Assembly: GCA_964462865.1 (NCBI GenBank)
Contig: CAYWZO010000005.1
Coordinates: 1-54,481, forward strand
Source of the DNA: an uncultured Dehalococcoidaceae bacterium
GTDB taxonomy: Bacteria; Chloroflexota; Dehalococcoidia; Dehalococcoidales; RBG-16-60-22
Reading direction: 5' to 3'
Length of the DNA stretch: 54,481 nt
Shown: positions 27,070 to 54,481 of the stretch, piece after piece
Position numbering within the stretch: position 1 is the first letter of the stretch
How the letters are laid out: each line of letters starts with the position of its first letter
Translations under genes and position numbers: made by a program
The notes under the pieces: generated by a model
Databases searched by the model: none
Told to the model about the DNA's origin: nothing
The model's input: only the letters and a program-made list of their open reading frames with translations

Positions 27070-27100
27070 CTACTACAACTTTACCTTGTGAGGAGTGAAA

Positions 27101-28285
27101 ATGAAGATATCCAAAATAGAATGCTTCCCGCTTAGCTTGGTTTACCCACCGCCCAGAAAGCGTACCGGCAAAGTCGTCCTGATAAAAATACATACCGACG
27201 AGGGTATCGTGGGGGTGGCCGAATGCGGAGATTTAATCAATACTTCGTACGACCAGGACATCGTGATGCTCATAATCAAAAGCTGGGAGCCTGTCCTGAT
27301 CGGGGCCAATCCCTTCGATAAAGAGCTTATCCTGGCTAAAATCAACCATCTTATCCATAACGTTACCGGCGGTCTGTCTTTCCCCAACGTGGTGGCACTG
27401 ATCGACTTCGCTTTATGGGACCTGGTGGGAAAGGCGTTGAACCAGCCCATTTACCAGCTCCTGGGGGGAAAAGCCTGTGACAAGCTGGCTGTCGATTACG
27501 TGATTGGCGACGTCGCCAACCTGTCACCCGCAGAGATAGCTAAAAAGGTAGAAAGGATTCTGGACAACGGCATCCGGACCGTTTGTCTCAAGGTGGGAGG
27601 TTTCTGGGGCAGCGATTTCGAACGCGATATCCTGAATGTGAAGACCGTTAGAAAAGCCATCGGCGACCGCGAAGACGTACACCTGTGCATCGATGCCAAC
27701 GGGGCCATGGATTACACCAAATCGCTGGAGCTAATCCGCCGCCTGGAGGACTGTAACCTGTACAAGTTCGAGCAGCCCACGTTTTCGTGGGACGTGGATG
27801 GCCTGGCGCGTTTACGCAAGAGTACCAAAGTCGCTATCTGCCCGCATGAGAGCAGTACCACGGTTTCTGCCCTGATGGAGGTCATTAAAAAAGACGCCGG
27901 CGACTTCGCAGGCACCAAGCTTGCCTGGGCGGGCGGTATCTCCGAGGGGGTGAAGTGGGGAGCCGTCGCCAAAGCGGCTGACCTAGGTGTGTATTGCGGC
28001 TCTATGAACGGGCCTTATGAGGCGGTGTTCCAGGCACAATGGCTGGCTTCAGACGCCTGGTACGGTAAACTTGCCCATGCCAATTTCTTTCCTATGATGT
28101 TCCATGATACCTTTGATACTACCCGCGACCTACAACGGGAAGATATCGTCGTCAGACCTATGGCCTACAAGGATGGCTACTTCTATCCGCCTGATGGGCC
28201 AGGCGTAGGTCTGGAGCTGAATGAAAAGGCCCTCCCTAATTTCATTACGCCGGGAATGAGCCCCATCACGATTGGGGGGAAATAG
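27101..28285 (+). CDS. Enolase superfamily protein (mandelate racemase/muconate lactonizing enzyme type)
   Basis: TDEGIVGVAE, IDFALWDLVGK, DANG, FEQP, PDGPGVG; AGGAG RBS before ATG 27101. Confidence 0.9.
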   Translation: MKISKIECFPLSLVYPPPRKRTGKVVLIKIHTDEGIVGVAECGDLINTSYDQDIVMLIIKSWEPVLIGANPFDKELILAKINHLIHNVTGGLSFPNVVALIDFALWDLVGKALNQPIYQLLGGKACDKLAVDYVIGDVANLSPAEIAKKVERILDNGIRTVCLKVGGFWGSDFERDILNVKTVRKAIGDREDVHLCIDANGAMDYTKSLELIRRLEDCNLYKFEQPTFSWDVDGLARLRKSTKVAICPHESSTTVSALMEVIKKDAGDFAGTKLAWAGGISEGVKWGAVAKAADLGVYCGSMNGPYEAVFQAQWLASDAWYGKLAHANFFPMMFHDTFDTTRDLQREDIVVRPMAYKDGYFYPPDGPGVGLELNEKALPNFITPGMSPITIGGK

Positions 28286-28442: not shown

Positions 28443-31118
28443 ATGACAAACGATTTATTTGAAGACCGTCATGAGGCCGGTCATCACCAGAAAAAAGCGC
28501 AGGCAGGATTGGACAAAACTGTATATAAATCACTTGGCCTTATGGGCTTGATGGGTGGTGGAGGACCTTGCGCCGTGGATGTCAGGAACGGAAAGATACT
28601 GAGAGTCAGGCCATTACATTTCGACTCTAAATATACCCGCGAGCATATCGAAGTCTTTAAGTTTAAAAGGAACGGCAAGGTCTTCGAGCCGTTGCTGAAA
28701 TCTTTGCCTTACCCGATTGCGCTGGCCTACAAGAAACGGTCTTATTCCCCTAACCGTATCAAATACCCGCTCCAGCGCATTGACTGGGACCCGGCCGGAG
28801 ACAGGCATGCCGAGAACCGTGGTATAAGCAAATATAAAAGAATATCCTGGGATGAAGCTGCCTCCATCATCGCCGGGGAAATCAGGAGGATTCAAAGGCA
28901 GTACGGTACGGCGGCCATCCTGGCCCAGGCGGACGGCCATGCAGAGTGCAAGAGTGTCCATGCCCCTCACGGTTGTCAAACACTCCTCCTCAGTAAAATC
29001 GGGGAATATACGCAGCAGGTAAGGAACCCGGATAGCTGGGAAGGCTGGTACTGGGGCTCGATGCACGTATGGGGCGATGGTGACGTCGGTTTGATGAACC
29101 CGAGTTTGAACACGGCCAAAGACTGCACCGAACACTCGGAAATGCTGCTTTTTTGGGGATGTGACCCGGAAACGACGCCCGGCGGGGCCGGTTCACAGTC
29201 AGCCTCCGCTTTATGCTTTTTCTGGTCGCAGGTGGGCATCAAACAGGTTTATATCTGCCCCGATTTAAACTACGGTGCCGCCGTCCATGCCGATAAATGG
29301 ATACCGGTGCTGCCCAATACGGACGCGGCCATGCAATTGGCGATAATCTACACGTGGCTTACCGAGGGCACCTATGACAAAGAATACATAAAAACTCACA
29401 CGGTGGGGCTGGAAAAAGTAGCCGATTATGTCCTGGGCAGGGAAGACGGTATACCCAAAACTCCGGCCTGGGCATCGGCGAAGTGTGGCGTCCCGGAGTG
29501 GACGATAAAAGCCCTGGCCAGGGAGTTTGCCTCTAAAACAACTTCGATTATGCATGTGCTCGGCGGCTCATTTATTAGAGGTCCCTATTCCACCGAGCCT
29601 GCCCGGCTGGAATCCATCTTGCTGGGCATGCAGGGGTTGGGGAAACCGGGCGTCCACCAGTGCGCTAACGTCGGCACTCTGCCCAGGACTTCCTGGATGT
29701 CGCGAACTTCCCTGCATATACATAATCTGGCGTCTCAAGCCGCCCGGGACGCTGCTAATAACCGTATTCTCCGTCCGCACCTGGCTACCCGCAACGTCTT
29801 CACCAAGCAGCAACTCCCCAAGACGCTCATTCAAGAAGCCATCCTCAATCCTCCCGTCAGTTTTTGGGGCAACGGTGCCATCGATTCTCCGCGCGAAGAC
29901 CAATTTAAAAAGTACACTTATCCCCTCCGCAGTGAAGAGGGAGGGTCGGAAATACACATGATATGGACTGACACCCCTTGCCGCACCACCTGCTGGAATA
30001 ACGGCAACAGGACTATCGAAGCCCTGAGAAGTCCCAAGATTGAATGTATCGTGGCCCAGCACCCCTGGCTGGAAAACGACTGCCTGCTGGCGGATATTAT
30101 CCTGCCCACCAACACTACCATGGAAGTAGAAGATATTATGGCTAACACCCGGGGTAATATACCCTGCGCGGCAGTCACTTACCAGGAAAAGGCGATTGAA
30201 CCTATCGGAGAATCCAAGAGCGACTATGAAGCAGTCCTGGAAGTAGCCAAGAAGCTGGATCTATATGATAAAGTGACAGGTGGTAAGACTGCGGAAGAGT
30301 GGATTAAGGATGTTTTTGATACCAATATGGCCAATTTTGTAAGCTGGGAAGAACTAAGAGAAAAGGGGTATTATCCTTTCCCGGCGGCCAGGGACTGGGA
30401 AGATGACCCGCCTGGCCTGAGAAAATTTTATGAAGACCCTGTAAAAAATCCCCTGTCCACGCCAAGCGGAAAACTGGAGTTTTACTCCGCGAGAATAGCA
30501 CAGGTTTTTCCCGATGACCCTGAAAGACCACCGGTTCCCAGATGGATTGAAAAGGGGATTACTCATGATGAGAGGCTTTCCAGTGAAAGAGCCAGGATGT
30601 TTCCTTTGCTCCTGATGTCCAATCATGGTAGGTGGAGGGTGCATGCTCAATGTGATGATATATCTTGGACCAGGGAAGCTCCCACCTGCAAAGTCAAAGG
30701 TTGGGATGGCTACATGTATGAGCCACTCTGGATTAACCCGAAGGACGCGGAAACAAGAAGCATTAAGACTGGAGATATTGTTAAAATCTACAATGAAAGA
30801 GGCACGGTGCTTGGTGGAGCCTATGTAACTGAGAGACTGATGCCAGGGGTTGCCTATATTGACCATGGGGCGAGGTGTGATTGGATTATTCCGGGAAAGC
30901 TGGACCGAGGAGGCGCTATTAACTTGATTTCTCCATGCGGAATTATTTCCCAGCATGCTGGTGGAGAAGCTACCAGCGCCTACCTTGTGGAGGTGGAAAA
31001 AGTAAGCATGCAGCAAATGGATGAGTGGAAGAGGCAATATACCGATGCATTTGAAAGACAGTATAACCCGGCGTCCGGGTTGCAGTTTAACGCCTGGGTC
31101 GAAGGAGGAATAGACTAA
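28443..31118 (+). CDS. Mo/W-bisPGD oxidoreductase, pyrogallol transhydroxylase large subunit (AthL)-like clade
   Basis: NPDSWEGW Ser-ligand motif, PNTDAA, ADIILP, TPSGKLEFYS, HAQ; no N-terminal FeS Cys motif; no Tat signal. Confidence 0.88.
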   Translation: MTNDLFEDRHEAGHHQKKAQAGLDKTVYKSLGLMGLMGGGGPCAVDVRNGKILRVRPLHFDSKYTREHIEVFKFKRNGKVFEPLLKSLPYPIALAYKKRSYSPNRIKYPLQRIDWDPAGDRHAENRGISKYKRISWDEAASIIAGEIRRIQRQYGTAAILAQADGHAECKSVHAPHGCQTLLLSKIGEYTQQVRNPDSWEGWYWGSMHVWGDGDVGLMNPSLNTAKDCTEHSEMLLFWGCDPETTPGGAGSQSASALCFFWSQVGIKQVYICPDLNYGAAVHADKWIPVLPNTDAAMQLAIIYTWLTEGTYDKEYIKTHTVGLEKVADYVLGREDGIPKTPAWASAKCGVPEWTIKALAREFASKTTSIMHVLGGSFIRGPYSTEPARLESILLGMQGLGKPGVHQCANVGTLPRTSWMSRTSLHIHNLASQAARDAANNRILRPHLATRNVFTKQQLPKTLIQEAILNPPVSFWGNGAIDSPREDQFKKYTYPLRSEEGGSEIHMIWTDTPCRTTCWNNGNRTIEALRSPKIECIVAQHPWLENDCLLADIILPTNTTMEVEDIMANTRGNIPCAAVTYQEKAIEPIGESKSDYEAVLEVAKKLDLYDKVTGGKTAEEWIKDVFDTNMANFVSWEELREKGYYPFPAARDWEDDPPGLRKFYEDPVKNPLSTPSGKLEFYSARIAQVFPDDPERPPVPRWIEKGITHDERLSSERARMFPLLLMSNHGRWRVHAQCDDISWTREAPTCKVKGWDGYMYEPLWINPKDAETRSIKTGDIVKIYNERGTVLGGAYVTERLMPGVAYIDHGARCDWIIPGKLDRGGAINLISPCGIISQHAGGEATSAYLVEVEKVSMQQMDEWKRQYTDAFERQYNPASGLQFNAWVEGGID

Positions 31119-31128
31119 TTTTAATAAG

Positions 31129-32223
31129 GTGGACGATATGTCGCAACGCAAGGCAGCCATGACTGAAGGGCAACGCTTGGCCGCTGTATTAAACCGGGAA
31201 AAGCCAGACAGGGTCCCTAACTGGCCTTTTTTTGATTTAACCGGTTTTTCTGCCGTATACCACCAGCGTCCTGTTGCGGCTGCGTACCTTGACCCCCGGG
31301 AGTCGCTGGATATGCAGCGCGCCGTCTGCCGGGACTTCCAATGGATATGCAGCCCCTTCTTCGCACTCTTTGGTGCTAACGAGTTCGGCGGTGAGGTGAA
31401 ATTACCGGATAGCCAGTATGCGCAGGCCCCGACCATTACCCGTTTCCCTGTGGAAAAGGAAGAAGACGTCCGGAAGCTAAAGATACCGGATATCAAGAAT
31501 TCGCCCAGCGTCGCCAGGGAGATTGAGTTCTATCAAATAGCGTCTAAAGAGCGCTTTGACAACGAGCCGTTCCGGGTTTATCTACCAAGCATCGAACCTT
31601 TTGGCTTTGTTGGCAAGTTATGCCGGCTGGAACTGCTAGCCAGGTGGATGCTCCGGAAACCGGAGATCGTCCTGGAGTTATTGCAGTTCGCTGATAGCTA
31701 TCTAGCAGAGATGATAAAACACTGGCGCGATATCTTCGGCACGGAAGACGTTATCGCCAGGAGCGGCGGTGTAATATCGAGTAACCAGCTAATCTCCCCG
31801 CGACTGTTCGAGCGGTTCGTGTTTCCTTTCCTGAAGGAGAGCCACCGGAAAGTGCTGGAAATGGGCTATCGGCACATCTACTGCCATATCTGTGGTGACC
31901 ATAACATGAATATGAAGTATTGGGCGCAGGTCCCTATGGGGGACCCCGGAATAGTAAGTATCGGCCATGAGGTGGAACTGGAAACGGCAGCGCAATATTT
32001 CCCCGACGACATCATCCTGGGCAACCTGGAGCCATCAATCCTGCAGACGGGCACAGCGGATGAGGTCTATGAAGCCACCAGGAAGGTGGTTGAAAAAGGA
32101 AAAAGGTTGTCTGGTGGCTATATCTTCTCATTGGGTTGCCAGTTTCCTCCGAGGGCTAGCCTGGATAACGCCCGCGCCATGAACCAGGCCATTGAGGATT
32201 ACGGGTGGTACGATAAGGTCTGA
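31129..32223 (+). CDS. UroD-fold methyltransferase (MtaA/CmuA-like)
   Basis: PDRVP, ISPRLFERF, CHICGD, ILGNLEP, LGCQ; start may be ATG 31138. Confidence 0.85.
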   Translation: MDDMSQRKAAMTEGQRLAAVLNREKPDRVPNWPFFDLTGFSAVYHQRPVAAAYLDPRESLDMQRAVCRDFQWICSPFFALFGANEFGGEVKLPDSQYAQAPTITRFPVEKEEDVRKLKIPDIKNSPSVAREIEFYQIASKERFDNEPFRVYLPSIEPFGFVGKLCRLELLARWMLRKPEIVLELLQFADSYLAEMIKHWRDIFGTEDVIARSGGVISSNQLISPRLFERFVFPFLKESHRKVLEMGYRHIYCHICGDHNMNMKYWAQVPMGDPGIVSIGHEVELETAAQYFPDDIILGNLEPSILQTGTADEVYEATRKVVEKGKRLSGGYIFSLGCQFPPRASLDNARAMNQAIEDYGWYDKV

Positions 32224-32236
32224 TTAATGGATAAAG

Positions 32237-32908
32237 GTGGTAAAGAGAATGGCTAGCGAAGCAAGGAAACAAGAACTGATAAAGTCAATTTACCACGCGG
32301 TCATTGACATGGATGAAGCGAAAACACGCAAGCTCTGCCTGGAGGCTCTTGATGAGGGGATTGACGCTTACCATACCGTAACTCATGGGCTAACAGCGGC
32401 GATGGACAGGGTGGGTGTGCTCTACGCCGAAAGAACATATTTTGTCCCGGAGCTTTTGCTGTGCTCGGATGCGCTTTACGCAGGACTGGAGGTGTTACGC
32501 CCGTACCTCAAGATAAACGAACTGGCCACCAGGAGGCAGATTATCATCGGCACCGTTGAAGGCGATATCCATGATATCGGCAAGAACCTGGTGAAGATAA
32601 TGTTCGAGGCCGCCGGCTGGGAGGTGCGCGACTTGGGGAGGGATGTCGCTTTACCAAGATTCCTCGAGGAATATAAAAAGCAACGCGCCGATATCATCGC
32701 CATTTCTGCCCTGATGACGACGAGCATGCTGGCCATGCCCAGAGTAATCAAGATGGTCAGGGCGGAGTACCCGGATGTAGCCATCATGGTTGGCGGCGCT
32801 CCCCTGACCAGGGAGATAGCTACAAGTTATGGAGCCGACGGCTACGCCGAGAATGCCGGGACAGCCGTGCCCGAAGCGCAAACGATGCTGGCAAGGCTGG
32901 GTAAATGA
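32237..32908 (+). CDS. Corrinoid (B12-binding) protein
   Basis: GTVEGDIHDIGKNLV (DxHxxG), SALMTT, MVGGAP, GADGY; N-terminal cap domain. Confidence 0.93.
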   Translation: MVKRMASEARKQELIKSIYHAVIDMDEAKTRKLCLEALDEGIDAYHTVTHGLTAAMDRVGVLYAERTYFVPELLLCSDALYAGLEVLRPYLKINELATRRQIIIGTVEGDIHDIGKNLVKIMFEAAGWEVRDLGRDVALPRFLEEYKKQRADIIAISALMTTSMLAMPRVIKMVRAEYPDVAIMVGGAPLTREIATSYGADGYAENAGTAVPEAQTMLARLGK

Positions 32909-33963
32909 AACGGGATAAAATGACACCGAAGGAAAGGTTGACAGCCTTCAGGAAGGGAGAAGCGACAGACCGCGTACCGTTTTTGTCTTTCACCCTCGGT
33001 TTTTGCGCCAGGAATGTCGGCTATCCGGTATCGGCCATCTACGCCGACCCGGAGAAAAGCTTTCGCGCGCAGCTGCGGACCAGGGAGCAGTACGGCTGTG
33101 ACAGCGAGCCTTTTTTTGGTTACGCCTCTTACGGGGGCTGGGAGTTCGGTGGAGAAATTGAGCTACCCGACGGGGAATACGAACAGGCACCATCCCACGG
33201 ACGGTTCGCCGTTAATGACGCGACGGATGTAGAGAAGCTTCAAAGGCCCGACGTGGCAACGGCGGGCATGCTGCCACTGGCGATGCAATTCTCACGGATA
33301 CAGGAAAAAAACGGCATCGGGCCCTCGGTAGTCGTCGGCGGGCCTTTAACTATCTCGGCAAATATCTGCCCGGTAGCCACACTATGCCGATGGATGGTAA
33401 AAAAGCCAGAGCTGGTGCAAAGACTCCTTCGGCTGGCTACCGATCATATCCTGGATATCGCACGCTACTGGATAAAGAGCTTCGGCAGGGGCCGGGTAGG
33501 AATGCAGATATGGGAGCCGGTGGCAACAAATGACCTCATTTCCCCCAAGCAATTCGAAAATCTGGTATTACCTTATCAGGTTGAACTACATGAAAAGCTA
33601 TTGAAAATGGGCATCCTCTATATTCTCTGCCATATCTGCGGGGAACAGATATTAAACCTTCCCGCCTGGGCAAGCGTACCGATGGATAATGGCATCGTCA
33701 GCGTCGGTCAAGAAATCGATATAGATACGGCGATAAAATACTTTGGGGACAGGTGTGCTATTGCCGGTAATATTGAGCCGGCGTTACTTCAGACCGGGAC
33801 GCCCGATGAAATCTGCGAACTCTGCCGGAGGGCCATCGAAAAGGGAAAGCGTGCCCCGCACGGCTATGCCCTGATGCCAGGGTGCGAAGTGCCGGTGAAT
33901 ACCCCGCCCGATAACCTTTACGCGATGAAAAAGGCTGTTAGCGAATTTGGCTGGTATGAATAA
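32905..33963 (+). CDS. UroD-fold methyltransferase (MtaA/CmuA-like)
   Basis: MTPKERL...DRVP, ISPKQFE, CHICGE, IAGNIEP, PGCEV; start overlaps the corrinoid gene stop. Confidence 0.87.
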   Translation: MKRDKMTPKERLTAFRKGEATDRVPFLSFTLGFCARNVGYPVSAIYADPEKSFRAQLRTREQYGCDSEPFFGYASYGGWEFGGEIELPDGEYEQAPSHGRFAVNDATDVEKLQRPDVATAGMLPLAMQFSRIQEKNGIGPSVVVGGPLTISANICPVATLCRWMVKKPELVQRLLRLATDHILDIARYWIKSFGRGRVGMQIWEPVATNDLISPKQFENLVLPYQVELHEKLLKMGILYILCHICGEQILNLPAWASVPMDNGIVSVGQEIDIDTAIKYFGDRCAIAGNIEPALLQTGTPDEICELCRRAIEKGKRAPHGYALMPGCEVPVNTPPDNLYAMKKAVSEFGWYE

Positions 33964-34086
33964 GGTCTCTGATTGCCGTCCATCTGAAGGGTAAAATCAG
34001 AAACAGGTTTGATAACCGACTTAAAGGTTCTTTGATTCTTTACGCTCACCCCCGCCAGAAAAAATATAATCCCTGACAAAGTTAAT

Positions 34087-34647
34087 TCATGATAATTTTT
34101 CTACCCGTTTCAAGATAATGAGCGCAGGTCGGGTCGGCCCGGGATATCGCTCTGATATCTTCCCCTTTGCCGTTTCAATGGGTGCGTTGATATCACCAAA
34201 CCTAAGGGCCCCGGTCGGGCAGTGGACAGCGCAAAAAGGTTCCGAACCGAGTCCGGTACAATAATCGCATTTCTGCATCTTACCATCCTGCCCGAATTGT
34301 GGCATACCGTAAGGGCAGGCGGTGAAGCACTCTTTACAGCCGTTGCATTTTTCATCGTCGACCAGCACCAGTCCGTCTTCAGATCGTTTATAGATGGCTC
34401 CGGTAGGACAGATACTCATACACGCCGGCTCGGCACAATGCATGCAGGATATCGACAAAAAAGTCCTTTTTACCTCGGGAAACTCACCTTGCCATGCTTC
34501 CTGGGTCTTTCGCCAGTAGAGTCCGGCTTCAATGTTACGCGCACTTTTGCAGGCTGCCTCACAGGTACGACAGCGGACACACCTGCTCTGGTCATAAATA
34601 AAACCTAGTTGGACCGGCATATCTTCAATCATGTTGGAATTATTCAT
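34087..34647 (-). CDS. 4Fe-4S dicluster electron-transfer subunit (DmsB-like)
   Basis: CVRCRTC, CMHCAEPAC, CNGCKECFTACP, KCDYC...CAVHCP; start overlaps the Mo-enzyme stop. Confidence 0.92.
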   Translation of the reverse strand: MNNSNMIEDMPVQLGFIYDQSRCVRCRTCEAACKSARNIEAGLYWRKTQEAWQGEFPEVKRTFLSISCMHCAEPACMSICPTGAIYKRSEDGLVLVDDEKCNGCKECFTACPYGMPQFGQDGKMQKCDYCTGLGSEPFCAVHCPTGALRFGDINAPIETAKGKISERYPGPTRPALIILKRVEKLS

Positions 34648-36821
34648 GCGGATAGTTTCATGACCTCAACAAGAGTCTGTTTTGGCATCGCCGTAACGAC
34701 CGGGTCAAATGCCTTTTCAGGGTCAGTGGTGTACAGCAAGTTCGTATTAGCGCCTCCATCGAGTAGATCATAACCCGACAATCCGAGTTCATCACAACCC
34801 TGCCACCAGCCGTGAAGACCCATAACAACTTTAGGGTTTATACCGGGGAATAGTACTGCCTTGGCCTTAATCCGGCCATGGGGAGACTCTACGGTAGTCC
34901 AATCGCCGTTTTCAATACCACGTTCTTTAGCCGTATCGGGATGTATGTATATCCAGGGGTCCGGCTCCAACTCACGCAGCAGGGGGATATTACGCAACCA
35001 GCCGTGATTATATACATCAGATGTGTGAGTATCGAAAAAAACGAGGGGATATTTTGTCAGGAGTTCGGGCGTGCTGGATGGTCCTTCCGGAGGGGCTGTC
35101 CATTCAGGTAGTGGATTAAACCCGTTTTCCTCAAAACCTGTATTAAATATAGCGACTTTACCCTGCGGGAGATAAGGGGCTTTAGAAAGCCGGGGACTGG
35201 GAGTGGCGAATGTCTTTTCATATTTCTCAAAGACCATCGGTCCCGGTTCGTAGATGATTCCGGTGGGGTATTTTCTCAATTCCTCCATTGTCATGCCGAA
35301 GTTTTCCAGCTGGTAATTCATGCACGCTATTATGTCGCCGTTCCAGAAGTCATCCCCGTAACCCATCTTTATGGCGAGGTCGAGCCAGAATTGAAAGTCA
35401 GATTTATAATTTCCCAGGGGCTCGATAACCTTATTTCTGGCCATTATCCAGTTCTTGGTAACCTCAAAGGGATGGTCGCATTCATACATACTGGTAACAG
35501 GAATGACAACGTCTGCCCATGGCATTGATGCGTTCTCCATAACGTCGATGACTACAAAGAAATCAAGTTTTTTCAGGGCTTCGATGACTCTCGGGGTCCC
35601 GCGGGTGATTACGGTGGGTTGAGTTCCAGGAGCGATGATTGTTTTCACAGGGTACGGCTTTTCGGTGAGGACACTGTCAAGACAACGGAAATAGGCGGAA
35701 GAGGTGCCTTCGGTGAATGGCTGGAAACAACTTGCTATCTCCGGGCCGACAAGATTGTCTACCCACTGTTGAGTATATTTTTCCCGGATGTGGACAGGTT
35801 TTAGTACTGGCATGGTTCCCGGAACGGGAATAACGTTTCCGCCAGGCCTATCGAGATTGCCGGTGATGGCGATCAACGTCGCGATGGCACGTACAGCATT
35901 GTTTGAATTTACCGTCTGATCAAAGGCATTGCCAACCCGGATACAGGCTGATTTTGCACTGCCGTACATCCGGCTTACTTCACGTATCCGGGCTGCCGGA
36001 ATTCCGGTTATGGGAGCGGCCCATTCCGGGGTATACTTCTGGACATGGCTTTTAAGTTGATCAAAACCATAACACCACTTGGTTACAAAATTTTTATCAT
36101 ATAGTTCCTCGGTAATAATGACGTTTAACATCGCCAGGGCCAAAGCCGCATCCGTTCCCGGTATAACCGGAATCCAGACATCCGCCTTGGCGGCGTCTGG
36201 CTGTAGCGCGGGTTTGATTACGATCAATTTGGCACCCTGCTCCCGGGCATTCAAAATTCGGTAGAAATCTCCTCGTGGAGTTCCGGAGTAAGCGGGGTTT
36301 GCTCCCCAAATGATGATCAAGTCAGTATTATCATAATCTTCTGTGAGCCGTGGCGCGCCCAGGGTATAGGCAAATCCGAAGGCGCGCTGGATCGCGCAGA
36401 TACCGCTATGGCCATAGTTTGGACTTCCATGTACCATGAGGAACCGGTAAAGATAATCGCTGTAGGTTCGCCTCTGGGGGGAAAGAATTGCCAGAGTTTT
36501 CGGTCCATATATTTCCTTCTGTTCGAGAAGCTTCCCAGAAATGATATCGATAGCTTCGTCCCAATCAATTCTCTTGAATTTTCCTTTCCCTTTTTCACCT
36601 GCCCTCTTTAATGGGTACCTCAATCGCTGTGGAGAATATAACCATTGGGCTGATGCAAATGCCTTGGCGCACAGTTTCCCTCGATTGATGGGAGATTCCT
36701 TCATTCCTTCGATTCTAACGAGTCTTCCATCCTTAACATAACAATTAATGCCACACCCCGCACTGGGACCGCATAGCGAACAAAATGTCCGTATTAATTG
36801 TTCTTTAGAATTTGATTTCAT
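34644..36821 (-). CDS. Mo/W-bisPGD oxidoreductase with N-terminal 4Fe-4S, probably Cys-ligated
   Basis: CSLC...GC...LCAK cluster motif, GSPNYGHSGIC, WGANP, PGTDAA, ITGNLDRPGG; no Tat signal. Confidence 0.9.
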   Translation of the reverse strand: MKSNSKEQLIRTFCSLCGPSAGCGINCYVKDGRLVRIEGMKESPINRGKLCAKAFASAQWLYSPQRLRYPLKRAGEKGKGKFKRIDWDEAIDIISGKLLEQKEIYGPKTLAILSPQRRTYSDYLYRFLMVHGSPNYGHSGICAIQRAFGFAYTLGAPRLTEDYDNTDLIIIWGANPAYSGTPRGDFYRILNAREQGAKLIVIKPALQPDAAKADVWIPVIPGTDAALALAMLNVIITEELYDKNFVTKWCYGFDQLKSHVQKYTPEWAAPITGIPAARIREVSRMYGSAKSACIRVGNAFDQTVNSNNAVRAIATLIAITGNLDRPGGNVIPVPGTMPVLKPVHIREKYTQQWVDNLVGPEIASCFQPFTEGTSSAYFRCLDSVLTEKPYPVKTIIAPGTQPTVITRGTPRVIEALKKLDFFVVIDVMENASMPWADVVIPVTSMYECDHPFEVTKNWIMARNKVIEPLGNYKSDFQFWLDLAIKMGYGDDFWNGDIIACMNYQLENFGMTMEELRKYPTGIIYEPGPMVFEKYEKTFATPSPRLSKAPYLPQGKVAIFNTGFEENGFNPLPEWTAPPEGPSSTPELLTKYPLVFFDTHTSDVYNHGWLRNIPLLRELEPDPWIYIHPDTAKERGIENGDWTTVESPHGRIKAKAVLFPGINPKVVMGLHGWWQGCDELGLSGYDLLDGGANTNLLYTTDPEKAFDPVVTAMPKQTLVEVMKLSA

Positions 36822-37016
36822 TACTATCTCTTAGTGAGTAATCATTATCAATTTTATCATTTATTCCGTTATTATACGAAATCAAAGTTACTTGCGGTCG
36901 TTCATAAATAAGATTGTTGTTCAAGGAACCGAGGGCAAGATCTGCTATAAGCCGCCGGTGCCGCCGAAATGGCAAGAAAACGATGAGTTTTCAGTTCTGC
37001 CTATTGAACCCCCGAG

Positions 37017-37098
37017 TGGGGAAGGGGGGACTCGAACCCCCACGCATTGCTGCACTGGATCCTAAGTCCAGCCCGTCTGCCAGTTCCGGCACTCCCCC
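37017..37098 (-). tRNA. tRNA-Leu (TAG)
   Basis: Reverse complement GGGGGAGTGCCGGAACTGGCAGACGGGCTGGACTTAGGATCCAGTGCAGCAATGCGTGGGGGTTCGAGTCCCCCCTTCCCCA; long variable arm; CCA not encoded. Confidence 0.95.
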
Positions 37099-49380: not shown

Positions 49381-51972
49381 ATGCCGGAAAAAGAAAGAAC
49401 GGTGGTGAAAGGACTCTCCGGGGCAGGTGTCACCGAAGATTCCAACTGCGTCCAGGTCGACATCAGGGACGGGAAAATCATCAGAATCAGGCCTTTTCAC
49501 TTCAACTGGAAATACGACCGCAAGCCCTGGAAGATAAAGGCCCGCGGCCAGGTCTTTGAAGCCAGCATGAAGACGTTGATACCCCCCTTTACCCTGGCCT
49601 ACAAGAACCGCGTCCATTCCCCCAACCGCACCCTCTACCCCCTCAAGCGCGTTGACTGGGACCCCAGCGGCGAGCGCAACCCGCAGAACCGCGGCCAGAG
49701 CAGGTACGTGCGTATTTCCTGGGATGAGGCCACCAGCATTATCGCCGGTGAAATTAAAAGGATCCAGAAAAAATACGGCCATACGGCCATTCTCCTGCAG
49801 GCGGACGGACACGGAGAGACCAAGGTGGTGCACGCCGCCCACGGCTGCAGCCGCAGGCTGCTTTCGCTGATGGGCGGTTACACCTGGCAGACCCGCAACT
49901 CGGACAGCTGGGAAGGCTGGTACTGGGGTGCCAAGCATGTCTGGGGCTGCGAGCCGGTTGGCAAGGCGGCCTACCAGTCTAATATTGTCCCGGATATCGC
50001 CGAGCATACCAATATGCTGCTTTTTATCGGCTGTGACCCGGAGACCACCACCTGGGGCTGGGGCGGGCAGACGGTCAGCCGCCTGTGCTACTGGTTCTCC
50101 GACCTGGGCATCAAGCAGGTCTATGTCTGCCCGGACCTGAACTACGGCGCCGCCGTCCACGCCGATAAGTGGATTCCGATACTGCCCAACACCGATGCCG
50201 CCCTGTACCTGGCCATCGCCTATCTCTGGCTGACACAGGGTACCTATGATAAAGAATACGTCAAGACCCACGTCGTCGGCTTTGAAAAGTTCGAGGCCTA
50301 TGTTCTGGGGGAAGAAGACGGCGTACCCAAGACGCCCACCTGGGCCTCGGCAAAAACCGGCGTACCCACGCGGATTATCAAGGCCCTAGCTAAAGCCTGG
50401 GCTGCCGGAGCGACCACCACCGTGCATGCTAATGGCGGTAACCTGGCCCGGGCGCCTTACTGCACGGAGAACATGCGCCTCGAGGTGTGCCTGCTGGGCA
50501 TGCAGGGCCTGGGTAAACCGGGGCGCCACATGTTCACCACCATCGAGTGGGGCCTCTTCGGCAATATGGACCCGCCGGAGTGGACCTTCGGCAAGACGAT
50601 CCCGGTCCCGCGCCATATGGTCTATCCCAACCTGGTGCCGGCCAACCGCGGCTTCGCCGTGGTGGGTGACGACCTGCCAGCCCAGATTATCTCCAAGGTG
50701 ATGATTACCGAGGCCCTGAATAATCCCCCCATTTCCTGGTACGGCACCACGCTCTGCCGCCAGCTCACGGAAAACCAGTTCGTGCAATACAAATATCCGG
50801 TGGACGGTTGCTCCGAGATTCACATGATTTGGACGGACACGCCGGCCCTGATGACCTGCTGGAACGATTCTAATTATACCGCCAAAGGCTACCGGAACCC
50901 CAAGATTGAATTCATGCTGGCGCAGCACCCCTGGATAGAAAACGACTGTCAGTTCGCCGATATTATCCTGCCGGTGACCACCAAGTTCGAGATTGATGAC
51001 ATCGGTATTGATAACTTTACCGCCGAGTTCGGCACCCTCTATCTCGACCAGAAATGCATCGAGCCCCGCGGCGAGTCACGCAGCGATTATGAGGTGGTCT
51101 GCGCCATTGCCGAGAAACTGGGCCTGCTGGAAGAATACACCGGCGGTAAGACTATCGACGAATGGATTAAACACGGCTTCGATAACTGCGGCGTCAAGCA
51201 CCTGGTATCCTGGGAAGAGTTCAAAGAGAAGGGCCACTTCGTCATCCCCAACGACCCGGACTGGGAGAAGTACGATATCGGCTTGAGAAAATTCGCCGAA
51301 GACCCGGAGAACAACCCCATTTCCACGCCGACCGGTAAGCTGGAATACTATTCACAGCGGCTGGCTGACCACTTCCCGGACGATAAGGAAAGGCCGCCCC
51401 TCCCCCGCTGGATTGAGCGGGGCGAGAGCCACGACGAGCGGCTCTCCGGCGACCGGGCGAAAAAATATCCCTTCCTCTGCTGCTCCAACCACCCCCGCTG
51501 GCGCGTCCACTCCCAGCACGACGATATGCAGTGGCTCCGGGAAATCCCCACCTGCAAGATAAAGGGGCCGGACGGCTACGCCTACCAGACGATGTGGATT
51601 AACCCCGCCGATGCCGCTAGAAAAGGCATTAAGACCGGCGATGTCGTCAAAGTGTTTAACGACAGGGGAGGCGTGCTCCTCGGCGCCTATGTCAACGAAA
51701 GGATTAGGCCCGGCGTTATCTACGTCGACCACGGCGCCAGGTACGACCCCATCGTTCCGGGCGAGCTGGACAGGGGCGGGGCCATCAACACCATTACCCC
51801 CCGTAAGACTGTCTCGAAGAACGCTACCGGCATGGTCTCCGGCGGTTTCCTGCTGGACGTGGAGCGCGTTAACCTGGACGAAATGCAAAGGCAGTACCCG
51901 GAGGCTTTCAACCGGCCTTATCATCGCGGTTCCGGCCTGACACTGGAAAGAATGTTCGCTGAAAAACAGTGA
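49381..51972 (+). CDS. Mo/W-bisPGD oxidoreductase, AthL-like clade
   Basis: NSDSWEGW, PNTDAA, ADIILP, TPTGKLEYYS, HSQ; clear paralog of 28443..31118; no Tat signal. Confidence 0.9.
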   Translation: MPEKERTVVKGLSGAGVTEDSNCVQVDIRDGKIIRIRPFHFNWKYDRKPWKIKARGQVFEASMKTLIPPFTLAYKNRVHSPNRTLYPLKRVDWDPSGERNPQNRGQSRYVRISWDEATSIIAGEIKRIQKKYGHTAILLQADGHGETKVVHAAHGCSRRLLSLMGGYTWQTRNSDSWEGWYWGAKHVWGCEPVGKAAYQSNIVPDIAEHTNMLLFIGCDPETTTWGWGGQTVSRLCYWFSDLGIKQVYVCPDLNYGAAVHADKWIPILPNTDAALYLAIAYLWLTQGTYDKEYVKTHVVGFEKFEAYVLGEEDGVPKTPTWASAKTGVPTRIIKALAKAWAAGATTTVHANGGNLARAPYCTENMRLEVCLLGMQGLGKPGRHMFTTIEWGLFGNMDPPEWTFGKTIPVPRHMVYPNLVPANRGFAVVGDDLPAQIISKVMITEALNNPPISWYGTTLCRQLTENQFVQYKYPVDGCSEIHMIWTDTPALMTCWNDSNYTAKGYRNPKIEFMLAQHPWIENDCQFADIILPVTTKFEIDDIGIDNFTAEFGTLYLDQKCIEPRGESRSDYEVVCAIAEKLGLLEEYTGGKTIDEWIKHGFDNCGVKHLVSWEEFKEKGHFVIPNDPDWEKYDIGLRKFAEDPENNPISTPTGKLEYYSQRLADHFPDDKERPPLPRWIERGESHDERLSGDRAKKYPFLCCSNHPRWRVHSQHDDMQWLREIPTCKIKGPDGYAYQTMWINPADAARKGIKTGDVVKVFNDRGGVLLGAYVNERIRPGVIYVDHGARYDPIVPGELDRGGAINTITPRKTVSKNATGMVSGGFLLDVERVNLDEMQRQYPEAFNRPYHRGSGLTLERMFAEKQ

Positions 51973-52038: not shown

Positions 52039-54481
52039 ATGCCGGAACAGGTTTTTATACAGTGCACGGTCGGCGGCCCCGTCAAGGTATACGTTAAAGA
52101 TGGTAAAATAACCAAGATGCGCCCTATAATCTTTGATGATAAGACGGACGCGCCGTCCTGGGTCATCAACGCCCGGGGACGCAAATTCACCCCGCCCCGT
52201 AAGACCACCCTCCAGACCTATGAAGTCCCGGAGAGGACCCGGGTCTACGCCGAGAACCGGATTAAATACCCGCTCCGGCGTAAGCATTTCGACCCCAAAG
52301 GCGAGCGCCATCCGGAGCTGCGTGGCAAGGACGAGTATGTCCGCATCTCCTGGGACGAGGCGCTGGACATCGTCGCCGGTGAAATCAAGCGTATCCGGCA
52401 GACCTACGGCCCGGCGGCCATCACGGCCATGACCTCCTCCCATCATAACTGGGGCTTCCTCCATTATAAACTCGGCCCGCTGGGGCGCTTCTTCAATATC
52501 CTGGGCTATACCTGCCTGTTCGATAACCCGGACAGCTGGGAAGGCTGGCAGTGGGGGGCAGTGCATACCTGGGGTTTCTGGTGGCGGCTGGGGCACTGCG
52601 AGCAGTCCGAGCTTTTGCAGGACGCCCTGAAGCATACCGAGCAGATTATCTTCTGGTCGGTCGACCCCAACAGCACCTCCTATATGTACAGCGGCCAGGA
52701 CAATCTGATATGGCGTATCTGGATGAAGGAACTGGGCATCAGGTTCGTGGTCATCGACCCCTATTGCAACTGCACCGCCAGTACCATGGGCGATAAATGG
52801 CTGGCCCCCCGCCCCGGTACGGACGCCGCTCTGGCAGAGGCCATCGGCTACGTGTGGATTAAAGAGGGGACTTACGATAAGTTCTTCGTCGAGAACCGCA
52901 CCTACGGCTTCGAGGAATGGAATAAGCATATTCTGGGCGAGACCGACGGCACGCCGAAGACGCCGGAATGGGCCGCCAGAATCTGCGACATCCCCGCCCA
53001 TGACATTAAGGCGCTGGCCCGGGAATGGGCGGCGAAAAAGACCATGCTGGCGGTGGGGAGTATCTTCGGCGCGACGGGCGCCTGCCGCGAGGCCTATGCC
53101 ACCGAGTGGGCGCGCCTGTGCGTCCTGCTCATGGCGATGCAGGGCTTCGGTAAGCCCGGCGTGAACTTCTGGGGCGGTACCGGCGGGGCGGCCCCGGTAG
53201 ATTATAGATTTAATATGCCGGGCTACTCCGAGAACGGCTGGGACGCCTTTGGCATCGTCGCCGATAAATCGTATTTCCCGGAGGGGAACAGTGTCACGCA
53301 GAAAGCCTACCGCCTGCTCCTGCCGGAAATCGTCATGAACCCGCCGGTAAGCTGGATAGGGGAGGGTTTCTGCGGCAACTCCGTCGAGCAGCAGTTCCAG
53401 CGTTTTACCTGTCCCGAGCCCGGCCCCAACGGCGCGCCCATCAAAATGATATACCGCCATGGCGGCTCATTCATCAGCACCATGACGGAGACCAACCGCT
53501 GGGTGCGCATGTACCAGCACCCCAACCTGGAGTTCGTGGTGATGCAGGACTGCCACTGGCAGAGCGAGACCAGGTTCGGCGACATCATCCTGCCCGCCTC
53601 CACCAACTTCGAGCACACCGACCTCTCCGAGTGGAACAGCGCCGGCGGCTACGGCTGCAATGATATGAACAACAACCACCGCGTTATCATCTACCAGCAA
53701 CAGTGCATCGAGCCGTTGTGGGAGTCCAAGCCGGACTACGAGATTTATACCCTGCTGGCGGACCGGCTCGGCTTCAAGGACAAGTATACCGAGGGCAACT
53801 CCTTTGAGGACTGGAACAAGAAGGTCTTCGAGTACTCCGATTTGCCCAAGTACGTTAAGTACGAAGACTTTAAAAAGAAGGGCTACTTCGTGGTGCCTTC
53901 CATGCCGCCCGACGCCGAGCCGCTGGTGTCCTTCCGCTGGTTCTACGAAGGGCGGCCCTGCGACCTGTACTCCGAGCCCAAGAATCCCTTCATCGGCACC
54001 GAGCGGGCGCACCTGCTGGGCACCCCCAGCGGCAAGGTCGAGTTCGTCTCCCAGACACTTCAGAAATTTGACCCCGATGATAAAGAAAGACCTCCGATGC
54101 CCCGCTACATCCCCTCCTGGGAAGGTTACAATACGAAGAAACTCACGAAAAAATACCCGCTGCAGCTGGTAAGCCCGCACCCCCGTTTCTCCTACCATAC
54201 GCATAACGACAACAAGAGCTACTGGCTGGATGATATCCCGCAGCACCGCGTTAGGAAAGACGGCTACACCTGGTGGCCGGTGCGCATCCATCCGGTGGAT
54301 GCGGACAAACGGGATATACATGATGGCGATATCGTCAAGGTCTATAACGGCCGCGGCGCGGTGCTCTGCGCCGCCCACGTGACCGAGCGCATCCGGCCGG
54401 GGACGGTGCACTCTTACGAGGCCGGGGCCAAGTACGACCCGCTGGAGCCGGGCAAGCCGGGCAGCATCGATAAAGGCGGCT
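52039..54481 (+). CDS. Pyrogallol transhydroxylase large subunit (AthL)-like Mo enzyme, 3' end beyond window
   Basis: Hand translation from ATG 52039 (GGAGGAG RBS): MPEQVFIQCTVGGPVKVYVKDGKI...TSSHHNWG...NPDSWEGWQWG...PGTDAA...PGYSE...SPHPRFSYH...IDKGG. The frame stays open to the window end; absent from the track because there is no stop. Confidence 0.92.
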   Translation, partial: MPEQVFIQCTVGGPVKVYVKDGKITKMRPIIFDDKTDAPSWVINARGRKFTPPRKTTLQTYEVPERTRVYAENRIKYPLRRKHFDPKGERHPELRGKDEYVRISWDEALDIVAGEIKRIRQTYGPAAITAMTSSHHNWGFLHYKLGPLGRFFNILGYTCLFDNPDSWEGWQWGAVHTWGFWWRLGHCEQSELLQDALKHTEQIIFWSVDPNSTSYMYSGQDNLIWRIWMKELGIRFVVIDPYCNCTASTMGDKWLAPRPGTDAALAEAIGYVWIKEGTYDKFFVENRTYGFEEWNKHILGETDGTPKTPEWAARICDIPAHDIKALAREWAAKKTMLAVGSIFGATGACREAYATEWARLCVLLMAMQGFGKPGVNFWGGTGGAAPVDYRFNMPGYSENGWDAFGIVADKSYFPEGNSVTQKAYRLLLPEIVMNPPVSWIGEGFCGNSVEQQFQRFTCPEPGPNGAPIKMIYRHGGSFISTMTETNRWVRMYQHPNLEFVVMQDCHWQSETRFGDIILPASTNFEHTDLSEWNSAGGYGCNDMNNNHRVIIYQQQCIEPLWESKPDYEIYTLLADRLGFKDKYTEGNSFEDWNKKVFEYSDLPKYVKYEDFKKKGYFVVPSMPPDAEPLVSFRWFYEGRPCDLYSEPKNPFIGTERAHLLGTPSGKVEFVSQTLQKFDPDDKERPPMPRYIPSWEGYNTKKLTKKYPLQLVSPHPRFSYHTHNDNKSYWLDDIPQHRVRKDGYTWWPVRIHPVDADKRDIHDGDIVKVYNGRGAVLCAAHVTERIRPGTVHSYEAGAKYDPLEPGKPGSIDKGG

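Follow-up and report, generated by a model that had tools for sequence, protein, structure and literature searches.

The window analysed here is a stretch of 54,481 nucleotides (contig CAYWZO010000005.1 of assembly GCA_964462865.1) from an uncultured Dehalococcoidaceae bacterium. It lies on contig C5 of a metagenome-assembled genome (MAG) of 1.96 Mb that is 90% complete and was recovered from salt marsh. Analysis of the window revealed an operon in which two short methyltransferases with MtaA-like zinc sites, MTa and MTb, flank one corrinoid protein, CP, downstream of a molybdenum (Mo) enzyme gene. Overall, our analysis suggests, with a rough probability of 0.45, that the three proteins form a self-contained, corrinoid-based methyl relay within the MtaA/'Mlp' class, in which MTa would load the corrinoid with a methyl group from a methoxylated (poly)phenol and MTb would unload it onto a thiol.

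The four genes of this tight unit all lie on the forward strand. The first encodes an AthL-like enzyme of the bis-MGD (bis-molybdopterin guanine dinucleotide) type with 891 amino acids (28443..31118; Pfam AhtL-like_1st; PDB 4v4c, E 1.5e-122). It is followed by MTa (31129..32223; 364 amino acids; URO-D, E 1.3e-36), CP (32237..32908; an open reading frame (ORF) of 223 amino acids) and MTb (32905..33963; 352 amino acids; URO-D, E 3.2e-49). The likely start of MTa is an ATG at 31138, later than the ORF start and with the Shine-Dalgarno sequence AAGGTGG in front; that of CP is an ATG at 32249 preceded by a GGTGG Shine-Dalgarno sequence, which gives a protein of 219 amino acids as in its homologs. 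The ATG of MTb at 32905 overlaps the CP stop codon as ATGA. In independent marsh samples, contigs run across the AthL-like/MTa junction (30855-32562) and also from MTa through the Mo enzyme gene downstream of MTb (31136-37000). Because of the narrow gaps (19, 25 and -4 nt), the Shine-Dalgarno sites, the ATGA overlap and the bridging contigs, the four genes are considered one tightly coupled operon, and co-transcription is predicted. Promoter and terminator scans gave nothing above chance level.

The initial annotation of this DNA, made from the sequence alone, had described two UroD-fold proteins around one corrinoid protein, each with HICG and a distal cysteine, and the ORFs together with the Pfam URO-D and B12-binding domains agree with it. 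MTa carries HICG at residues 253-256 (nt 31885-31896) and G-C-Q at residues 336-338 (nt 32134-32142), and MTb carries HICG at residues 243-246 (nt 33631-33642) and G-C-E at residues 326-328 (nt 33880-33888). The accompanying claim, that H-x-C…C is an MtaA-type zinc site, is supported by alignment: phmmer matched MTb to Methanosarcina mazei MtaA (PDB 4ay7) at E 1.3e-18, with HICG/PGCE placed under HICG/PGCG of that chain. H-x-C-G and G-C were invariant in 58 of 58 aligned short family members, and the six long UroD paralogs that this genome encodes (415-472 amino acids) all have x-E-G and A/S/T in place of the triad. Since the motif is invariant in the former and gone from the latter, it is no chance occurrence. 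The pattern x-E-G with A/S/T has been described for UroD enzymes of the O-demethylase type, and a His-Cys-Cys site in this family goes with sulfur or selenium substrates and with thiol or selenol alkylation (PMC10418091).

Analysis of the fold pointed in the same direction. The AlphaFold2 model of MTb (pLDDT 92) found MtaA 4ay7 as its best Foldseek match in the PDB, with TM scores of 0.82/0.85 and 26% identity, and true uroporphyrinogen decarboxylases ranked lower. With 39% identity to each other, MTa and MTb are paralogs within one subfamily. On the NCBIfam models tried for MtaA/MtbA/CmuA (NF040654, NF041608, TIGR01463 and PRK06252), MTb scored 93.3, 85.6, 109 and 113.7 against cut-offs of 400, 600, 235.4 and 244, and MTa scored 70.1, 68.9, 66.3 and 89.5; all values are below cut-off. 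Placement of both proteins in an MtaA/MtbA-like zinc class, and outside the O-demethylase class of substrate:corrinoid methyltransferases (MT1), is supported by their sequences. Plain O-demethylase MT1 proteins, which the initial annotation had named as the outcome contrary to its proposal, would resemble the six long paralogs without the triad, and MTa and MTb are short and possess it. Protein-atlas clusters for the family are labelled URO-D and are all unnamed. No longer, fused form of MTb turned up in a search for such proteins, although this negative is weak evidence; a 611-amino-acid ORF in locus L033 was rejected as a fusion, since it contains one URO-D domain only and is an artefact of ORF calling.

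CP consists of a cap domain (B12-binding_2, PF02607) and a Rossmann B12 domain (B12-binding, PF02310), with the DxHxxG His-on motif present as D-I-H-D-I-G at residues 110-115 (nt 32564-32581). It reaches 167 bits on TIGR02370, for which the cut-off is 215; since both domains and the motif are present, CP is regarded as a divergent member of that family. Homologs of 217-223 amino acids and 51-70% identity were found in 25 loci.

A total of 37 loci with the gene set were identified in GTDB species genomes, and their gene contexts were rebuilt by ORF calling and BLAST. Most complete loci have the order MT-CP-MT or CP-MT-MT. The hosts belong to Dehalococcoidia, Chloroflexia, Syntrophorhabdus, Desulfobacterota and Aerophobetes, together with one actinomycete and one Leptospirales MAG. 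More than 990 metagenome homologs of MTb occur at 63-89% identity; in a library of representatives at 50% identity, only 96 clusters matched at <=1e-30. The family is rare within its class (3 of 200 other Dehalococcoidia genomes sampled) and present in multiple copies in several genomes (L012/L013, L007/L011, L029/L030), with three methyltransferase copies in L019 and in L005. The MT/CP gene set is regarded as a module that is both conserved and mobile. No methyl-corrinoid:acceptor methyltransferase (MT2) of the AcsE-like, pterin or MtrH type was found in the window locus or in any of the 37 related loci, and an activase adjoins the relay genes in one of the 37 only (L025).

Comparison of the methyltransferases between loci revealed a division into a slow core and fast partners. 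In a maximum-likelihood tree, exactly one methyltransferase per locus, MTb in the case of the window, falls in a core clade of 27 rows with short branches (SH-aLRT 97). The second and third methyltransferases of each locus are spread over heterogeneous clades with longer branches, MTa being placed in a clade of 10 upstream partners (SH-aLRT 97). Median pairwise identity is 59% for the core and 40% for the partners, and in 152 of the 153 locus pairs it is the core that is better conserved. The wider phylogeny was anchored on two named outgroups, with the named MtaA, MtsA, MtpA, CmuA, MecC/E and ClMlp1-3 proteins left outside it. The nearest named outgroup, in a sister clade, is a protein of the Firmicute Andreesenia angusta (WP_071061682.1, 29% identity), and the second, an MtbA-annotated protein of Ca. 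Methanohalarchaeum, lies near the base of the wider clade. Because a single slow core with fast, variable partners fits a shared unloader with substrate-specific loaders, we propose, from evolutionary rate and by analogy, that MTb is the methyl-corrinoid:acceptor MT2 and MTa the substrate:corrinoid MT1.

The initial annotation had also reported that a folate-type methyltransferase and a reactivase are lacking. This holds at the locus and, for the MT2, across the 37 related loci; it does not hold for the genome, in which AcsE, together with AcsC of the corrinoid iron-sulfur protein (CFeSP), is encoded on contig C53 and one RACo_C_ter protein (323 bits), with AcsV as best match (482 bits), on contig C14. 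A RACo activase is likewise present in 22 of the 23 other genomes with the gene set, and so the reactivase is displaced and not missing. Strong CFeSP matches were found in 16 of these 23 genomes, and the remaining seven have no clear CFeSP. Proteins with the pterin-binding domain PF00809 in the window's own genome are FolP and AcsE only. Profile searches of this 90%-complete genome for MtrH and MttB found neither, and ComA (PF02679), the one route of coenzyme M (CoM) synthesis covered by the search, was not found in it. The second pair of corrinoid protein and long UroD protein in the genome is likewise without an MT2. As a separate observation, the RACo activase gene adjoins an ORF of about 300 amino acids with a weak match to CdhD (E about 1e-7) in several relay genomes (G006:C2:427794-429142, G010:C69:12351-13656, G016:C4:1546-2740 and G012:C177:1126-2170); by its sequence this ORF may be an unrecognised TIM-barrel methyltransferase.

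In the proposed mechanism, MTa would take the methyl group off an imported methylated compound and pass it to Co(I) of CP. MTb would then move it from CH3-Co(III) to a small common acceptor at its His-Cys-Cys zinc site, and the RACo/AcsV-type activase encoded on the other contig would re-reduce the corrinoid in trans. The fold, the zinc triad, the packing of the operon, the conservation of the gene set, the rate difference between core and partners and the gene contexts are observed; the MT1 and MT2 roles, the donor and the acceptor we infer.

Analysis of the neighbouring genes gave the main indications of the donor. The AthL-like enzyme matches PDB 4v4c with 413 bits, compared with about 230 bits (about 1e-65) for dimethyl sulfoxide (DMSO) and trimethylamine N-oxide reductases; it is colinear with AthL, the large subunit of pyrogallol hydroxytransferase, over 816 residues, keeps NPDSWEGW and has no Tat signal. 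Downstream and convergent with the relay operon lies the gene of a bis-MGD enzyme that resembles acetylene hydratase and PsrA and carries an Fe4S4 domain at its N-terminus (34644..36821, reverse strand; PDB 2e7z, 5.9e-78; 2vpw, 3.3e-77). This enzyme has no N-terminal signal peptide, which places it in the cytoplasm, and its partner is a DmsB-like 4Fe-4S ferredoxin subunit (34087..34647, reverse strand; Fer4_11; TIGR02951 148 bits, under cut-off). Ten of the 37 loci (L006, L011, L012, L013, L024, L025, L027, L028, L029 and L037) have a homolog of the acetylene-hydratase-like enzyme (32-37% identity) directly beside the relay genes, and both the window and L013 have an AthL-like gene near the relay. 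Among characterised enzymes, catechol dehydroxylases come closest to acetylene hydratase, and homologs of them occur in anaerobic degraders of aromatic compounds (PMC7028382). Other recurrent neighbours are transporters (TRAP, Liv-type ABC, MFS and substrate-binding proteins), LysR regulators, an AMP-binding CoA ligase, FmdE and DUF6951; a CoA ligase together with an acyl-CoA dehydrogenase occurs near some loci. No sulfur-metabolism, selenium or methionine genes are local to the relay.

Because these neighbours are transporters, regulators and catabolic enzymes, the role of the relay is probably catabolic and its substrate imported, non-volatile and probably acidic; they point to methylated (poly)phenolic or methylthio acids as the candidate class. 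A methoxylated (poly)phenol may well be the donor, since an AthL-like Mo enzyme stands in the operon and relatives have acetylene-hydratase/catechol-dehydroxylase-like enzymes and organic-acid transporters. A methyl-thioether such as methylmercaptopropionate (MMPA) or an S-methyl amino acid could with somewhat lower probability take its place, and the neighbours suit an aryl-O-methyl donor no less well than a thioether. For the acceptor, a thiol is somewhat more probable than tetrahydrofolate, sulfide or some other small thiol being the simplest choice. A thiol is reasonable because of the zinc class of MTb, the lack of a pterin or MtrH-type MT2 in the 37 loci and a genome in which MtrH, ComA and MttB were not detected; a thiol acceptor has also been proposed for similar clusters by Kountz and Balskus (PMC10418091). 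Tetrahydrofolate keeps a substantial share, since most hosts have CFeSP and no other MT2 was found in the window's own genome.

Several points weigh against this reading. The MT1/MT2 assignment has evolutionary rates and analogy as its sole basis. MTa, like MTb, has a His-Cys-Cys site, which by the published rule speaks against an O-methyl donor. With CFeSP, and so probably the Wood-Ljungdahl pathway, in 16 of 23 genomes, methyl-tetrahydrofolate would pay more than the loss of a methyl-thiol. The AthL-like enzyme scores 344 bits on bisC_fam and could be an S- or N-oxide reductase, and a Mo enzyme is adjacent in only 10 of the 37 loci, the other neighbours being generic. On the second of these points, Cys-rich zinc sites can activate O-methyl substrates too, as in MtaB with its Glu-Cys-Cys site.

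The rival explanation that survives best, itself rather unlikely, is the transfer from thiol to thiol raised in the initial annotation. MTa would demethylate a thioether (MMPA, dimethyl sulfide (DMS), methanethiol, methionine or S-methylcysteine), possibly formed out of a sulfoxide by the neighbouring enzymes of the DMSO-reductase family, and MTb would methylate another thiol, in the manner of MtpA/MtpC with MtaA in Methanosarcina. It has in its favour the His-Cys-Cys site in both methyltransferases, the membership of the Mo enzymes in the DMSO-reductase superfamily, the CoA ligase and acyl-CoA dehydrogenase near some loci and a salt-marsh habitat rich in compounds derived from dimethylsulfoniopropionate. 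MtpA, an MtaA homolog, is moreover an MMPA:cob(I)alamin methyltransferase that needs a second methyltransferase (bioRxiv 10.1101/548461). However, the upstream enzyme matches pyrogallol transhydroxylase (413 bits) far better than S-oxide reductases (about 230 bits), and acetylene hydratase is the nearest match of the recurrent Mo partner. Sulfur-metabolism genes are absent from the locus, the search for ComA found no gene for CoM synthesis, and there is no evident route for using a methyl-thiol product.

It is unlikely, though to be taken seriously, that MTb is a new methyl-corrinoid:tetrahydrofolate methyltransferase without the pterin-binding fold, feeding the Wood-Ljungdahl pathway within a conventional catabolic demethylase. 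Kountz and Balskus raised this option for Mlp proteins (PMC10418091). The strong CFeSP matches in 16 of the 23 genomes fit it, as does a genome that encodes AcsC and AcsE and no other MT2 type, in which a second pair of corrinoid protein and long UroD protein also goes without an MT2. It does not account for a zinc triad that is invariant, although N5 methylation needs no zinc thiolate site, nor for the seven genomes without clear CFeSP. To our knowledge, no UroD-fold enzyme methylates a pterin.

A more specific version of the preferred methoxylated-phenol relay with a thiol acceptor places it behind sulfide-dependent O-demethylation, which is known physiologically from Holophaga foetida and anoxic sediments. 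MTb would methylate sulfide or methanethiol, so that methoxylated polyphenols would yield methanethiol and DMS, and the pyrogallol or catechol rings would pass to the adjacent Mo enzymes. A literature search found no enzyme assigned to this process. In so specific a form the proposal is doubtful.

Improbable is a scheme in which MTa and MTb are both MT1 loaders, serving two substrates or, in succession, two methyl groups of a single one, with unloading by AcsE/CFeSP or an unrecognised enzyme elsewhere. MTa and MTb are indeed paralogs of one subfamily, three copies occur in L019 and L005, and MtsA-type enzymes can run both half-reactions. The strict pattern of one core plus variable partners and the strong rate asymmetry are, however, not expected of equivalent loaders.

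Still less probable is a role in salvaging methyl-selenide or methyl-sulfide, or in making or salvaging methionine, with MTb as a methyl-CP:homocysteine methyltransferase, along the lines put forward for type 1 mlp clusters. The genome encodes SelD, and ClMlp2 methylates selenide (PMC10418091). MetE/core-MetE (PF01717) and the MetH homocysteine domain (PF02574) were not found in the window's genome or in 14 of the 23 other relay genomes, but PF01717 may miss divergent synthases of the MesC type, and the MAGs are not complete. The low rating of a methionine synthase reflects the rarity of the family (in 3 of the 200 other Dehalococcoidia genomes sampled), its several copies in some genomes and its setting among transporters, regulators and catabolic enzymes; selenium and methionine genes are absent from the locus. 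Core-MetE-like matches were observed in four genomes (G010, G012, G016 and G020), all among those without a strong CFeSP match. Demethylation of DMS formed from DMSO was ranked below the aromatic reading, as the upstream enzyme is much nearer to AthL and many loci have transporters for non-volatile substrates.

Comparison with published systems revealed resemblance to several and a match to none, the closest being the mlp clusters above all, then MtpA/MtpC with MtaA, and MecE-MecB-MecC. Type 1 mlp clusters (Kountz and Balskus, bioRxiv 2023, PMC10418091) share with the window at least two MtaA-like His-Cys-Cys proteins and one corrinoid protein, the lack of a tetrahydrofolate methyltransferase in the cluster and occurrence in anaerobes only. 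They differ in having Ram/RACE in the cluster, whereas the activase of the window's genome is on contig C14 and only one of the 37 related loci has an adjacent activase, and in having selenium and sulfur genes, whereas the window cluster has none nearby and is linked instead to Mo enzymes and transporters. They belong to Firmicutes, and the window family to Chloroflexota and Desulfobacterota. By published description they comprise distinct Mlp1, Mlp2 and Mlp3 clades, whereas in our tree, built without ClMlp1-3 and Sdm sequences, the window methyltransferases form one subfamily, sister to a clade with a Firmicute protein.

MtaA and MtbA (PDB 4ay7) have the same UroD TIM-barrel, aligned H-x-C…C ligands and about 340-360 amino acids, zinc being predicted for the window proteins. 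Identity to MTb is nevertheless only 26%, the NCBIfam scores are far under the cut-offs and the host is a bacterium without detected ComA, MttB or MtrH. MtpA/MtpC of Methanosarcina acetivorans (bioRxiv 10.1101/548461) is likewise a relay in which an MtaA-like MT1 and another MtaA-like methyltransferase act with a corrinoid protein, but it is archaeal, with MMPA as donor and CoM as final acceptor, and the window relay is bacterial. The dichloromethane (mec) cassette is bacterial too and has two methyltransferases around one corrinoid shuttle, MecE being in the MtaA/CmuA family (bioRxiv 10.1101/2021.08.30.458270). Unlike the window, it also has an MtrH-type methyltransferase (MecF) and an activase (MecH), is found in Peptococcaceae, uses a halomethane substrate and has no linked Mo enzymes. 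Both Mec methyltransferases, MecE and MecC, are reported, in an AEM study of 2024, to be zinc-dependent.

OdmABD, VdmABD, MtvABC and CdmBCA follow the same MT1-CP-MT2 logic, with the activase elsewhere and a link to aromatic catabolism. Their MT1, however, is a long UroD protein (about 420-470 amino acids) without Cys ligands and their MT2 is pterin-binding (PMC13222342), whereas both window methyltransferases are short (352-364 amino acids) with His-Cys-Cys; by these sequence features the window relay is not an Odm/Cdm-type O-demethylase. Characterised bacterial MT2s are pterin-binding (CdmA, MtqA, OdmD and bacterial MtaA) or MtrH-like (MtoA) (PMC13222342, PMC8630106), and characterised bacterial corrinoid demethylases pass the methyl group to tetrahydrofolate by such enzymes. 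The window relay differs from them. Its gene set, distinct and widespread to judge from the close metagenome homologs of MTb, would have two methanogen-type zinc methyltransferases in place of the pterin or MtrH-type MT2 and is tied to polyphenol-type Mo enzymes. Should a thiol be the acceptor, the relay could explain one origin of the methanethiol and DMS of sulfidic sediments or reveal a new bacterial C1 carrier; should it be tetrahydrofolate, a new protein fold for methyl-tetrahydrofolate formation would result. Either outcome would alter the annotation of MtaA-like genes in uncultured anaerobes, which are at present labelled "uroporphyrinogen decarboxylase" or "methylcobalamin:CoM methyltransferase".

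Analysis of the remaining features gave further observations. An MR/MLE (enolase-superfamily) enzyme gene (27095..28285, forward strand; MR_MLE_C and MR_MLE_N, under every NCBIfam cut-off) lies 158 nt upstream of the AthL-like gene on the same strand and may be part of the same transcription unit. Contigs of two 2019 salt-marsh runs (X5 and X6) match the window up to the stop of the AthL-like gene (31118) and continue into unrelated sequence; therefore, some related populations have the Mo gene without the downstream relay. A tRNA-Leu (37016-37098, reverse strand) lies directly upstream of the acetylene-hydratase-like gene. A DUF6951 protein of about 110 amino acids that contains Cys follows the methyltransferase genes in three Dehalococcoidia loci (L017 3335-3667, L019 10201-10530 and L036 1296-1616) and has no homolog in the window's genome.

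At least 13 AthL-like paralogs, 35-66% identical to the window copy, are present in the 1.96-Mb genome (window 49381-51972 and 52039-54481; contigs C3, C12, C35, C78, C70, C27, C83 and C16), together with five acetylene-hydratase/Psr-like paralogs. For so small a genome these numbers amount to a striking expansion. On contig C12 (25770-28738; L042 4771-7739), a long O-demethylase-like UroD paralog adjoins a carboxylesterase/BD-FAE gene of the feruloyl-esterase-like type, a pairing that is consistent with the use of lignin-derived methoxylated aromatics.

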